NCBI RefSeq assembly: GCF_988243305.1
Contig: NZ_OZ547136.1
Strand: one strand, 5' to 3'
DNA length: 64,000 nucleotides
The first letter of the stretch is position 1; each line of letters opens with the position of its first letter. Shown here piece after piece: positions 27,401-33,400 of this stretch. A program made the position numbers.

Positions 27401-30400
27401 GTTCACAGATAAAACACTCTCCAGGAAACCCGGGGCGGTTCAGAACATCTGAAAGGTTACTGGCCGAATCAACTGAGTTTCTCAGAATCATGTGGAATGG
27501 TGATGAGAATGCTGATGACATTGCAGGGCGCTTCACCGGGACGTATACCGGAGCTGATGCGCGATCTTGCAAGTATGGGACAACTTGTGAAATTACCGAC
27601 AAGAAGGGAAAGGGCCTTCCCGAGAGTGGTAAAGGAGAGGCCCTGGAAATACCCCACAGCCCCGAAAAAGAGCCAGTCAGTTGCTTAACTGACTGGCATT
27701 ACAGCTAGGCTGGGGGTTCCGGAAAGCTTTCAGCTTTGAGCCAGTTATTAAAACCCCTTTTGATTTGTTAAAACACCTTGCGGTCTGGCAACTGCAAGAG
27801 TCAAACAAGAAATCAAAAGGGGTTCAAATGGGGAACGAAAAGAGCTTAGCGCACACCCGATGGAACTGTAAATATCACATAGTTTTTGCGCCAAAATACC
27901 GAAGACAGGTGTTCTACAGAGAGAAGCGTAGAGCAACAGGCAGTATTTTGAGAAAGCTGTGTGAGTGGAAAAGTGTACGGATTCTGGAAGCTGAATGCTG
28001 TGCAGATCATATCCATATGCTTGTGGAGATCCCGCCCAAAATGAGCGTATCCGGCTTTATGGGATATCTGAAAGGGAAAAGCAGTCTGATGCTTTACGAG
28101 CAGTTTGGTGATTTGAAATTCAAATACAGGAACAGGGAGTTCTGGTGCAGGGGGGACTACGTCGATACAGTGGGTAAGAACACGGCGAAGATACAGGATT
28201 ACATAAAGCACCAGCTTGAAGAGGATAAAATGGGAGAGCAGTTATCGATTCCCTGTCCGGGCAGCCCGTTTACGGACCGTAAGTAACGAAGTTGGATGCA
28301 AATGTCAGATCGTGTGCGCCTGTTAGGGCGCGGCTGGTAAGAGAGCCTTATAGGCGCATTTGAAAAACCTCCGGCTATGCCGGAGGATATTTATTGCACG
28401 TCGTCAATTGCGGCGTGCTGGCTCTTCCATTGATATCTGCTGGATTAAATCGTCTGGCATATGTTCCTGTAAAATACGCCAGAGGTTCTCGGCGGTTCTA
28501 TTCAGTCGGGTGTTCATTCGGTAAATATAAGCCTGAATGGGGACTGTCAATTTAGCAGCATCAAGGCATATCAGACGTTTGGTCTGTAGTTCATCGACGA
28601 TCGACCAGATCGGTAACCAGGCAATGCCGTATCCGTTGAGCGCCATATTCTTTAATAACTCGCTCATCGAAGAGATAAATATCGTGCGCCCGGTAATACC
28701 TCCAACCTCTGCCAGATGACGATTGACCAACCTGCCCATATAAGATGTGGCGGTATAGTTGAGCAAAGGAACCTGGGGCTGAGTGATATCGAATACAGGG
28801 TGCCCCTGTGCGTCGGCGGCACATACCGGGTACAACTCAGATTCAAACAGTTTCAGGCAGCAAAAAGGCGATTGCATAAGATCTTCATCGCGAAACGAAA
28901 TAATAAAGTCACTCTTGCCTTCGCGTAACGTATTTACGGCCTGGACAACATCAATGGCTTCAACATGATAGACAAATTCTCCGCCATAGGCGGTAAGTGA
29001 ATGCACCAGTTTGGGTAATACGCTCAGGGATAGTGAGTGCGCGGCTGCAATTTTAATGTTGGGAACGCCGAGTAAACTCTGGCCGTTTAACTCCCCCAAA
29101 TTGCATTCAAGCTGCTGTAATAAGCTGCGAGTCTGGGAATGAAAGAGCTTGCCCTCTTCGGTTAATTGTAAAGGGGTGGTCGTGCGATCGAATAAAACAA
29201 CGCCGATCGCTGCCTCCAGCGCCTTAATTCGTCGGCTGAATGCGGGTTGCGAAAGATTACGCTCTTTTGCCGCCTGAGAAAAATGGCGACAGGCTTCCAG
29301 TGTCAGGAAATCGTATAACCATTTTGTCTCGATATTCTTCATTACCATGGCACCTGTATTTTCAATCCAAAGACATAATAAAACATCCCGGCAATAAAAA
29401 TAATGTTCTCAATTAGCACAACCTGGCCTTTATCATTCGTTTTGTGCATAACCCCTTCATTTCCGGTATTGACGTTGATATCACATTTCGCCAAAAAAAC
29501 GAAATTTTTCCGTCAGATAACCAGAATACATCATCACTATGGTGAATAAGCGGAATGTTCCATAGCTGCATCATGCGTGTCTTGCATCGCCTTGTACAAC
29601 CTTGCATTTCTCATCGCCCATTTCGACTGTTAAAAAAGAGAGCAGCAGTTATTTACCGCGTATTGTCATTAACGTTTTGAGAGGCAGGTATTGTGAAAGG
29701 TTTAATTGGTGTACTCGGTGGAATGGGGCCGGCAGCTACCGTCGACCTGTTTAATAAATTTGTAACTTTTACCGCTGCACAATGTGATCAGGAACATATT
29801 CCTTTAATTATTTCTTCGATCCCGGATATTCCTGACCGTACCGATGCATTAATGCATCATGGGCGTTCACCATTACCCGTTATGCGTGATTATATGCATA
29901 AGCTGGAAGATGCCGGGGCAGAATGTATTGTTATTCCCTGTAATACCGCGCATTACTGGTTCAAAGAATTAAAAGATGCTTGTCATATTGATATATTAAG
30001 TATCGTAGAAACTACGAACAATGAAGTTCGCGCCTGTGGTAAAACCCGAATTGGCTTGTTAGCCACCAATGCCACGCTATATATGGGTTTATACCAAAAA
30101 GGAATTGAGTCGCTGGGATTTACCTGTGTCAGCCCCGATGCCGACGGTCAGAAAAAAGTGATGGAAAGTATTTATTCCTTGAAAGCTGGCAATATAGCGC
30201 ACGCACAAAAGTTGATGAATGAGCAGGCTGAAATATTATTTTCCCGCGGTGCAGAAATCCTTGTTCTTGGTTGTACAGAAATTCCGGTTATTCTGGCGCA
30301 AGCCGTTAAAGAGCAGCCTTCCCGCTATATTGACTCAACGGCGTCACTCGTTCGTGCCGGAATAAAATGGTACGAAAATCGTGTCGGTAAACATTATCTT

Positions 30401-33400
30401 TTAACCCAATAATCATTTAAATCGCAGCCAGAAAGTTATTCGCTTTTAACTGAATTATATTTATAACGGAGAACATTATGGTTTGGCTGGAAATTATCGT
30501 AGTACTTGGTGCAATATTTTTTGGTATTCGCCAGGGGGGAATCGGTATTGGTTTATGTGGCGGGCTTGGGCTTGCCATTCTGACTCTGGGATTTGGTCTG
30601 CCTATGGGGTCGCCGCCAGTCGACGTGATCCTGATTATTATGACCGTTGTTGTGGCGGCCTCAGCCTTACAGGCCGCAGGCGGAATGGATTATCTGGTAC
30701 GCGTCGCTGGTAATTTTATGCGGCGTAACCCGAAATATATCAACATAATCGCGCCGATTATCACCTGGTCTATGACCATTATGGCCGGTACTGGGTTTAT
30801 TGTTTTTTCCACGCTGCCGGTGATTGCTGAAGTGGCGAAAGAGTCCGGTATCCGTCCTTCCCGCACGCTTGCCGGTTCGGTTGTCGCTTCGCAGGTTGCG
30901 ATTTCCGGTTCGCCGATCAGCGCCGCAATGGCGGCTATGCTCACTATTATGGAGGTAAACGGTGTCAGTTTTATTCAAGTGATGTCGGTATGTCTTCCCA
31001 CCTCTTTTGCTGCCGCGATGGTCGCCGCTTTTATTGCTTCCCGACAGGGATGTGAGTTGCAGGATGACGAGGTCTACCTTGAGCGCCTGCAAAAAGGACT
31101 GGTGCAAAAATACGAGAATAATAGCAGCATCAAGCCAGGTGCGACGCTCTCCGTCGGATTGTTCCTGCTGGCGACGGTCGCTATTGTTATTCTTGCTGCC
31201 TTCCCCCAACTGCGTCCGGGTTTTGATATCGGTAAACCGATGGAAACACGCGATATCATTATTATCTGTATGCTCTCTGCCGCCTGCCTGATGGTGGTGC
31301 TGTGTAAGACGGCGACCGATGCCATTATTCTCACCTCCACATTCCGTGCGGGGATGAGTTCGCTGGCGGTAATTCTCGGCATTGTAACCTTAGGCACCAC
31401 TTTTATTGATGCGCATTTAACTGAGATTAAAGATATTGCTGGTGATATTTTGCAGGCGTATCCGATGTTGTTGGCGCTGGTTCTTTTTGGCACTTGCGCG
31501 CTGCTCTACTCGCAAGGTGCGACCACGCCGTTAATTATCCCGCTTGCCGTCGCGCTTGACGTGCCCACCTGGGCAATTCTGGCGTCCTATGTGGCCGTCA
31601 CCGGAGTATTTGTACTGCCAACGTATCCAACATCACTGGCTGCCATGGAATTTGATACTACCGGCACAACTCGTGTAGGCAAATATGTGCTGAATCATCC
31701 ATTTATGCTGCCTGGGTTGGGGGGAATTATTGCTGGAGTGGCATTAGGCTTTGTGATTGCGCCAATGATTATTTAGCACTATCAAACATCAGTATCGATG
31801 GTTTATACACAATAAAGACAGATATGGCGGAATATAGTCTGTTGTAAGCGCCAACAAAGAATAGGGGAATTCCGCCATGTCTGAACATCTTCACAATATG
31901 GTATTAAGTGTTGTCGTTTAATGATTTATTTCTTGGTTATGTTGTGTATTAGCTGCATCTATCGCTTTTTGATACCTGAGGTGTACTGGCAATAGCGGAC
32001 ACTACCATTTGTTCTTTTTTTAAGCAGTCATCTGATGATATTTTTCCCTGAAGGCTGCCGAGGAGATATTCCCCAGACGAGAGTGACGACGCTGACGATT
32101 GTAGAAAATCTCAATGTATTCCCGTATTACTGAGATGGCTTCATCCCGGTTATTAAAACGATAGTGGCTCAGGCTCTCATTTTTCAGCGTTCCCCAGAAG
32201 CTTTCCATCGGAGCGTTGTCGTAACAGTTACCTTTACGCGACATTGATGTTTTCAGACCAAACTGCTCCTGTATGACCCGGTAATCGTATGCGCAGTACT
32301 GTGAACCTCGATCAGAGTGATGGATTAGCCCGGCAGGTGGGCGCTGGCTCCTGAGCGCCATAAACAGGGCTTTACCTGTCAGCTCTTTTGTCATGTGCTC
32401 TCCCATGGCGTAGCCGACAATTTCGCACGTATAAACATCTTTGATGCCAGCGAGGTACAACCATCCCTCCTGTGTGGCAACATACGTCAGGTCCGCCACC
32501 CAGACCTGATTTGGTGCTGTAGGAGCGAACGTCTGGTTCAGCAGATTTGGCGCAACTGGCAGATTGTGGTTCGAGTTCGTAGTCGCTCTGAACTTGCGTT
32601 TCTGCTTACAGCGTAGCCTTAGCTCCTTACGAAGACGTGCCAGTCGGTCACGACCAACGATGATGCCATTCTCTGCCAGCTCCGTCTGGAGCCGCCGGGT
32701 TCCATATGTTTCGCGAGTGCGGATATGTGCCACCTTAATCTCCAGTTTTAGCCGCTCATCACTTTAGTTTTCTGTCTGAGGGTTCATGCTGTACCCAGTT
32801 GTAGGTGATGACTCCAACTTACTGATAGTGTTTTATGTTCAGATAATGCCCGATGACCTTGTCATGCAGCTCCACCGATTTTGAGAACGACAGTGACTTC
32901 CGTCCCAGCCTTGCCAGATGTTGTCTCAGATTCAGATTATGTCGCTCAATGCGCTGAGTGTAACGCTTGCTGATAACGTGCAGCTTTCCCTTCAGGCGTG
33001 ATTCATACAGCGGCCAGCCATCCGTCATCCATACCACGACCTCAAAGGCCGACAGCAGGCTCAGAAGACGCTCCAGTGTGGCCAGAGTGCGTTCACCGAA
33101 GACGTGCGCCACAACCGTCCTCCGTATCCTGTCATACGCGTAAAACAGCCAGCGCTGACGTGATTTAGCACCGACGTAGCCCCACTGTTCGTCCATTTCA
33201 GCGCAGACAATCACATCACTGCCCGGTTGTATGCGCGAGGTTACCGACTGCGGCCTGAGTTTTTTAAGTGACGTAAAACCGTGTTGAGGCCAACGCCCAT
33301 AATGCGTGCACTGGCGCGACATCCGACGCCATTCATGGCCATATCAATGATTTTCTGGTGCTTACCGGGCTGAGAGGCGGTGTAAGTGAACTGTAGTTGC

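Follow-up and report, generated by a model that had tools for sequence, protein, structure and literature searches.

Three adjacent genes at positions 28404-31776 of the 64,000-nucleotide stretch of DNA that we analysed (contig NZ_OZ547136.1 of NCBI RefSeq assembly GCF_988243305.1; hereafter, the window) very probably, at roughly 85% in our estimate, make up a self-contained cassette for using D-aspartate that is identical to orf7-orf8-orf9 on the SRL pathogenicity island in Shigella flexneri. The function as such is already known, as the D-aspartate utilisation module was published in 2020 (Henriquez et al. 2020, PMC6980539), and a literature search for follow-ups to that paper turned up only a review and a tomato-survival study. 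What is new here is the regulator with its conserved operator, the link between racemases and regulators of the family of Escherichia coli K-12 HypT, the misleading RefSeq name of the racemase and the truncation of a published orf8 construct. The module and the published fragment lie in the window as follows.

28404-29348, minus strand: LysR-type regulator (SRL island orf7), 314 residues, Pfam domains HTH_1 and LysR_substrate
29693-30412, plus strand: PF01177 racemase (SRL island orf8), 239 residues, GTG start with GAGAGG ahead of it
30478-31776, plus strand: PF03605 DcuA/DcuB-family transporter (SRL island orf9), 432 residues
29548-31976, plus strand: published complementing fragment pUC18G orf8-orf9, placed by its primer matches

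Inspection of the open reading frames (ORFs) showed that the genes for the LysR regulator, the racemase and the DcuA-family transporter are all uninterrupted, and the Pfam and NCBIfam scores of the three proteins far exceed the curated cutoffs, so the initial annotation was right in calling the three genes intact. It had also described a divergent regulator with a shared intergenic region, and we indeed found 344-350 bp between the divergent regulator and the racemase-transporter pair. Regarding the start of the regulator, the homologues and the RefSeq annotation place it at MKNIETK at 29342 (312 residues), two codons later than in the list above, and this is likely the true start.

The primers given in PMC6980539 tie the published results to this DNA. 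Exact matches in the window, one for each primer and with 0 mismatches, lie at 29548-29568 for the complementing fragment's forward primer, at 31953-31976 for the reverse primer and at 29723-29739 for the orf8 cloning primer, and the orf9 forward primer corresponds to the first codons of the window transporter. Because of these exact matches the module can be equated with orf7-orf8-orf9 of the S. flexneri SRL island, to which Table 2 of the same paper assigns LysR, aspartate racemase and DcuA respectively. In phenotype arrays the loss of the island abolished the respiration of D-aspartate, specifically among the D-amino acids assayed, and the orf8-orf9 fragment rescued the D-aspartate phenotype in both S. 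flexneri and S. sonnei (PMC6980539). Furthermore, chiral liquid chromatography-mass spectrometry of culture supernatants showed that D-aspartate vanishes and L-aspartate appears, and the orf8-orf9 fragment was needed for growth with D-aspartate as the sole carbon source (PMC6980539). The dependence of D-aspartate racemisation and growth on orf8-orf9 is thus a literature result that is tied to the window DNA. It supports the uptake and racemisation of an amino-dicarboxylate that had been proposed for these genes from the sequence, and the accompanying statement that the substrate was unknown is out of date, as D-aspartate was published in 2020 (PMC6980539).

The product of orf8 is a two-cysteine aspartate racemase that is independent of pyridoxal phosphate (PLP). 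It scored 149.4 bits against PF01177 (cutoff 31; 1.6e-43) and 188.1 bits against TIGR00035 (cutoff 93.1). In an alignment of 13 sequences including the Pyrococcus horikoshii enzyme 1JFL, both C83 (in PCNTAH) and C194 (in GCTE) are invariant, and likewise R49 and K164, which we take to be the contacts of the side-chain carboxylate in the Pyrococcus enzyme. The validated P. horikoshii aspartate racemase (1JFL/2DX7) is 43% identical, is also a PLP-independent two-cysteine enzyme, and the equivalents of its C82/C194 and R48/K164 are kept. Nevertheless, it is an archaeal stand-alone enzyme from a different clade, with neither a HypT-family regulator nor a Dcu partner. Among the solved structures the top match was 3S7Z, a putative aspartate racemase (1.5e-75, residues 1-229), and the next one was 1JFL. 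The entries 3S7Z/3S81/5EVC, presumably a Salmonella protein, share the fold family and the catalytic cysteines with the window racemase, but 3S7Z belongs to a separate subclade (P0109, a protein closely related to it, shows 54% identity with the window racemase), and the neighbours of its close relatives are hypT-iadA-yjiGH and a TRAP transporter instead of a DcuA-like gene.

Judging from the same alignment, the racemase really starts at the GTG at 29693, which adds 10 conserved codons to the orf8 start of S. flexneri 2a YSH6000 used in PMC6980539. In the 2001/2020 annotation orf8 starts at an ATG (29723) that encodes Met11 of the full-length protein, and the orf8-only construct of PMC6980539, beginning at 29723, is without the ten residues MKGLIGVLGG. 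Among the dropped residues G6, L8, G9 and G10 are invariant from Enterobacteria to Pyrococcus, as is M11, and the N-terminal beta-strand with the GGMGP motif is complete only with the GTG start. Since the construct lacks these four invariant residues, its failure to complement is uninformative on the need for the transporter. A shortened racemase construct is thus part of the basis on which the paper concluded that neither gene is dispensable, although the orf9-only result of PMC6980539 does show that the racemase is needed.

The transporter matched PF03605 over its full length (448 bits, 2.3e-134) and scored 582 bits against NF006927 (cutoff 369) and 495 bits against TIGR00770 (cutoff 331). 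With K-12 DcuA and its aspA-dcuA exchange system it has in common the family (PF03605, NF006927) and aspartate as the substrate class. We rejected, however, its identification as the aspA-linked DcuA orthologue: it is only 48-49% identical to K-12 DcuA, whereas the DcuA found beside aspA in Campylobacteraceae is 59% identical to it, there is no adjacent aspA, and the carrier belongs to a separate lineage of its own that travels with the racemase, with 65-92% identity among the triads of regulator, racemase and DcuA-like carrier. Compared with the carriers encoded downstream of the racemase gene in Citrobacter, Providencia and Bibersteinia, the window transporter showed 92%, 85% and 68% identity respectively. 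PMC10634366 describes DcuA-type carriers as exchangers of L-aspartate and C4-dicarboxylates. By analogy the orf9 product is presumed to be a D-aspartate importer, and it would be reasonable if it took up D-aspartate from outside while releasing L-aspartate or a C4-dicarboxylate from the cell; a D-/L-aspartate exchange would account for the L-aspartate in the supernatants.

Conservation of the neighbourhood, which the initial annotation had named as a check, also supports uptake and racemisation, as the triad recurs and distant racemases adjoin genes of aspartate catabolism. We surveyed 80 genomic loci (labelled in the style of L075) and placed the racemases in a neighbour-joining tree without bootstrap. 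The closest relatives of the racemase are chromosomal and come from Citrobacter (84-87% identity), followed by those from Trabulsiella, Enterobacillus, Limnobaculum, Providencia, Edwardsiella, Proteus and Pasteurellaceae. The divergent regulator/racemase/DcuA-like triad lies in Citrobacter between pseudouridine genes and fruBKA (of the fructose phosphotransferase system, PTS) and is also present in Providencia and Bibersteinia, and the survey added triads from Escherichia albertii, from five more loci in four species of Citrobacter, and from Budvicia and Rodentibacter. In Citrobacter, Budvicia, Providencia and Pasteurellaceae the triad is chromosomal. The DNA similarity to Citrobacter is limited to the three coding regions (75-77%), which fits the capture of exactly a three-gene unit, and the capture junctions are not definable from this comparison.

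Farther away, the gene order is aspA-dcuA-racemase-asparaginase in the Campylobacteraceae relative, regulator / racemase / fumarate reductase / aspA in termite-gut metagenome-assembled genomes (MAGs) and, for Paenibacillus, SDF transporter / racemase / aspA. An SDF dicarboxylate/amino-acid carrier takes the place of the DcuA-like one in Pectobacterium, Dickeya, Brenneria, Erwinia, Tatumella, Xenorhabdus, Acinetobacter and Vibrio. Such a swap of non-homologous carriers of acidic substrates beside a constant racemase and regulator is what would be expected of an uptake-plus-racemisation unit. In Edwardsiella hoshinae (L022) the racemase is accompanied by a DcuA-like gene and by a HypT-like regulator in convergent orientation. 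Edwardsiella ictaluri (L006/L021) is without the transporter, with an insertion sequence (IS) of IS605 type just beyond the regulator gene, and this module looks decayed.

In the mechanism that we propose, where we infer the direction and mode of transport as well as the role and the effector of the regulator, the DcuA-family carrier would import D-aspartate, probably swapping it for L-aspartate or a C4-dicarboxylate as DcuA does. The two-cysteine racemase would turn the D-aspartate into L-aspartate, and housekeeping enzymes, aspartase and the fumarate pathways among them, would use the latter as a carbon, nitrogen or respiratory substrate; the racemisation would also clear a toxic D-amino acid. 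Orf7 would most likely bind the dyad ATGCG-N5-TGCAT at about -63 and TTGCATTTC at about -39, thus activating the racemase-transporter operon, and a second box nearer orf7 would permit autoregulation. The trio was probably captured as a unit from a Citrobacter-like enterobacterial chromosome, and it now resides on integrase-bearing islands of Shigella and E. coli. L-aspartate is key for the fumarate respiration of enterobacteria in the gut and the cassette opens the D-aspartate pool, and therefore this mobile cassette could be a colonisation factor.

It is unlikely that the main role is instead detoxification, as a protection against inhibitory D-aspartate, or export, in which D-aspartate would be made from L-aspartate and released as a signal or as a cell-wall block. 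D-aspartate did inhibit an island-negative strain on mannose and L-aspartate was found in the supernatants (PMC6980539); besides, two-cysteine racemases are reversible and Dcu carriers are exchangers, the latter according to PMC10634366. Nevertheless, the fragment supports growth on D-aspartate as the sole carbon source (PMC6980539). Furthermore, the relatives are embedded with catabolic aspartase, fumarate reductase and asparaginase genes. Enterobacterial peptidoglycan is not known to require D-aspartate. Actually, detoxification and catabolism can coexist.

Regarding the regulator, it scored 407.6 bits against the NCBIfam HypT model NF007488 (cutoff 301) and is 59% identical to K-12 HypT/YjiE (QseD), the DNA-binding N-terminus being nearly identical. 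Its counterparts in Citrobacter, Providencia and Bibersteinia are 82%, 75% and 64% identical to it. The regulators beside a racemase and a DcuA-like gene are 63-82% identical to each other, and their identity to the iadA-linked HypT group is 58-60% for the enterobacterial ones and 55-57% for the Bibersteinia one. Moreover, the genomic partner of K-12 HypT is iadA-yjiGH, whereas Orf7 is divergent from racemase-dcuA and does not occupy the HypT position downstream of iadA-yjiGH. On these comparisons Orf7 is a HypT paralogue, not an orthologue. The Vibrio vulnificus protein VV2_1132, a published HypT homologue with a crystal structure, was also considered and falls outside the family, with only about 30% identity to HypT. 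The final 15 codons or so of the regulator gene (28404-28449) do not resemble the Citrobacter gene at the DNA level, and the protein has 9-11 extra residues; this C-terminus may be a replacement at an old capture or IS junction.

In the intergenic region, which we aligned for ten triad loci, we propose four regulatory elements.

29435-29449: distal LysR-type box ATTCGTTTTGTGCAT, candidate autoregulatory site nearer the regulator gene, one mismatch from the dyad pattern
29573-29587: proximal candidate operator dyad ATGCG-TGTCT-TGCAT (ATGCGTGTCTTGCAT), a T-N11-A LysR box
29602-29610, plus strand: candidate activation half-site TTGCATTTC, exactly 14 nucleotides past the dyad and near the -35
29627-29637, plus strand: CTGTTAAAAAA, candidate extended -10 of the racemase-transporter promoter, proposed from conservation only

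The proximal dyad is kept in all but one of the 10 intergenic regions of the alignment (the exception is Bibersteinia, where the 3' half alone aligns at this site) and it is the sole exact ATGC-N6-TGCAT of the 64 kb window, where shuffled sequences lead us to expect 0.2. The half-site is identical in all ten regions, and a conserved CTGTTAAA block (about 29627-29637; tgttaaa/tgataaa) follows it at a fixed distance. If transcription starts a few bases past the putative -10, the centre of the dyad would lie near -63 and the half-site near -39, and dyad and half-site together would be a textbook arrangement of a LysR-activated promoter. The block of the distal box is kept in Citrobacter, Budvicia, Providencia, Rodentibacter and Bibersteinia, with a perfect dyad in the last two.

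Using a slightly relaxed operator pattern, we measured its enrichment in the 37 loci where a regulator of the HypT family lies close to the racemase. Upstream of the racemase there were 27 matches in 18.9 kb (1.43 per kb), with at least one match in 25 of the 37 loci, compared with 17 matches in the remaining 448 kb of the same loci (0.038 per kb). The arrangement also appears upstream of yjiH, the gene that heads yjiHG-iadA-hypT, where the dyads are located as follows.

8797-8811 of locus L012: yjiH-side dyad of K-12, in the yjiH-kptA intergenic region
11166-11180 of locus L009: yjiH-side dyad
10198-10212 of locus L026: yjiH-side dyad

In E. coli K-12 the dyad ATGCAAAAAACGCAT is followed by 14 nucleotides, TTGCATTTTCC and then CTGATAAG; the region upstream of yjiH in Hafnia has the layout of K-12, and that of C. 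amalonaticus has the dyad. The layout ATGCR-N5-YGCAT, 14 nucleotides and TTGCATTT is thus common to the racemase and yjiH upstream regions, and it suggests that K-12 HypT binds or controls the promoter of its own isoaspartyl-dipeptidase operon, yjiHG-iadA-hypT. Our literature search found no HypT operator and no HypT-yjiH or HypT-iadA link, which is not a proof of absence.

Several points weigh against the D-aspartate cassette as we describe it. A consensus promoter scan of the intergenic region called no sigma-70 promoter at the proposed site, and this is why the promoter is proposed from conservation only. Since the close clade was the source of the operator pattern, independent support comes only from the yjiH promoters and from the distant loci, which belong to Acinetobacter, Endozoicomonas, Vibrio, Erwinia, Tatumella, Xenorhabdus and betaproteobacterial MAGs. 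Since the published fragment, on a high-copy plasmid, worked without orf7, the regulator is not strictly required for expression, at least in that high-copy setting. Regarding the enzyme and the carrier, the evidence for orf8 is in vivo only and a wider substrate range (glutamate, cysteate) is possible, the truncated orf8-only construct does not cleanly show the requirement for the transporter (PMC6980539), and the racemase tree is a neighbour-joining tree without bootstrap.

A PF01177-family racemase lies directly beside hypT-iadA-yjiGH in C. amalonaticus, in Hafnia and in the relatives of 3S7Z, and in one large proteobacterial racemase clade every sampled racemase adjoins a HypT-family regulator. 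The HypT adjacency of this whole clade and the operator layout common to both kinds of upstream region suggest an ancestral tie between HypT-family regulators and this racemase. Tentatively, and as something rather less than an even bet, the family may at its root have been the dedicated regulator of an aspartate racemase unit rather than a stress sensor. If this were true, K-12 HypT would bind and control its own isoaspartyl-dipeptidase operon, the natural effector of the family would be a small aspartate-related molecule (D-aspartate or an isoaspartyl compound) and the activation by hypochlorous acid (HOCl) would be secondary or lineage-specific. The operator and the pairing of HypT with racemases offer a handle on what HypT senses and regulates.

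The same family membership could mean that Orf7 is a second hypochlorite sensor and the module a part of the oxidative-stress response, which we regard as quite improbable. Orf7 is annotated as HypT, passes the HypT equivalog and, as said, is 59% identical to K-12 HypT, which is activated by oxidation of Met123, Met206 and Met230 (PMC3792123). Two of these three activating methionines, Met206 and Met230, are kept in Orf7. However, they are conserved in every HypT-family member examined, even in distant ones, as could be expected of structural residues no less than of sensing ones, whereas Met123 is Leu in Orf7 and variable across the family, so Orf7 does not have the three methionines of HypT. 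In addition, the racemase-side regulators form a subclade apart from the iadA-linked HypT, and their constant partner across orders is the racemase. A divergent LysR regulator beside a catabolic operon is usually responsive to the substrate, which also speaks against the stress reading.

The newer PGAP/RefSeq records name the identical E. coli protein cuyB, cysteate racemase, because the racemase passes the NCBIfam equivalog NF052483, with 247.5 bits (cutoff 190). Nevertheless, this model also gave 233.9 bits to the validated P. horikoshii aspartate racemase 1JFL (partial sequence), 244-256 bits to racemases adjoining aspA, 208-241 bits to those adjoining SDF transporters and 240-261 bits to those adjoining a DcyD/CuyA-like gene. 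Therefore NF052483 does not discriminate aspartate racemases from cysteate racemases. The defining feature of CuyB is the partnership with the D-cysteate sulfo-lyase CuyA (PMC11193023); the Bilophila wadsworthia CuyB described there has the PF01177 family and the two-cysteine chemistry in common with the window racemase, but our module has no CuyA partner. Actually, we found no CuyA/DcyD-like gene close to the window racemase, nor did any of the triad loci have one. A CuyA-like neighbour was present in only 3 surveyed loci (L075, L077 and L088), whose racemases, which stood in for the BwCuyB sequence of B. wadsworthia, share 40-41% identity with the window racemase and fall into a clade of their own. 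These three are probably genuine cysteate (CuyA-CuyB) loci, in Enterobacterales and Burkholderiales. In each of them the DcyD/CuyA-like gene adjoins the PF01177 racemase directly, and in L075 (4988-7738, Superficieibacter electus) a binding protein of the NMT1/OpuAC (sulfonate) type follows.

Thus we rejected cysteate racemase as a name for the orf8 product, considering the non-discriminating model, the missing CuyA partner, the separate clade and the D-aspartate phenotype. The CuyB label is an over-annotation, although a cysteate side activity is possible. That the module imports and racemises L-cysteate for a D-cysteate sulfo-lyase encoded elsewhere is very improbable: the NF052483 score with its PGAP name, the structural analogy of cysteate to aspartate and the dicarboxylate-family transporter of the Bilophila CuyB cluster (PMC11193023) speak for it, but the same model passes a validated aspartate racemase and aspA-linked relatives, the CuyA-linked racemases stand apart, and the phenotype arrays tie the island specifically to D-aspartate (PMC6980539). 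This is worth taking into account, as the renaming in RefSeq could mislead work on sulfonate and D-amino-acid metabolism in gut pathogens.

Regarding the genomic setting, the whole 3.6 kb segment has 100% identical copies in many E. coli chromosomes, and at least 80% of it is present in 347 of the 5426 complete E. coli genomes (about 6%); the racemase has 100% identity with a cluster of proteins comprising 555 E. coli member sequences. An island of E. coli EC2 that bears an integrase has a part 99.7% identical to the stretch 27702-33600. The module had been described as wedged between IS elements, and this holds, with the following features around it.

22451-24252: IS21 istA fragment and istB, upstream flank
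25028-26161: IS4, upstream flank
26187-27400: IS3-family element, upstream flank
27765-28286, plus strand: IS200/IS605 tnpA, upstream flank (NF033573, 141 bits)
28368-28386, minus strand: likely terminator, a GC-rich hairpin and T-run (8-bp stem, 7 G-C pairs, TTTTTC; consensus match only)
32020-32733, minus strand: truncated IS3-family (IS600) orfB, downstream flank (NCBIfam IS3 transposase match)
32819-33516, minus strand: IS1, downstream flank after the IS600 orfB (NCBIfam IS1 transposase match)

The hairpin, found in a terminator scan, sits just past the stop codon of the regulator. The RefSeq annotation of the identical E. coli segment also has the IS600 orfB and IS1 flank, and the counterpart of tnpA in the 99.7% identical EC2 segment is annotated as frameshifted.

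The SRL island of S. flexneri 2a YSH6000 (Luck 2001; PMC6980539) has the same module DNA, gene order and gene assignments, but according to PMC6980539 it carries fec genes and a resistance locus, neither of which was seen among the scanned window ORFs. In the window, in contrast, the module shares its island mosaic with a siderophore gene of the IucA/IucC family, with an Ag43 adhesin and with helicase-like genes, and there are extra IS3, IS4 and IS21 copies upstream. Since the cargo of the two islands differs, the module is a component that a family of mosaic islands has in common.

Some other genes of the window were also recorded. At 47823-57149 there is a run of large ORFs that starts with an IucA/IucC-family siderophore synthetase (weak SbnC/SbnF matches); it looks like an aerobactin cluster and has an IS3-type ORF inside (52675-53565, minus strand). 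A full-length autotransporter adhesin of the Ag43/Cah family lies at 60115-63036 (NF033177, 1982 bits). The large helicase-like proteins encoded at 142-5306 and 38426-41107 gave weak matches to the anti-phage components PLuB, ProA and Hhe, and these are possible defence genes of the island. Finally, a MalX-type PTS IIBC gene (10189-11796, minus strand) and a block with a ribokinase and a FucP-like permease (18107-21423) are further metabolic cargo of the island mosaic, for the utilisation of sugars.

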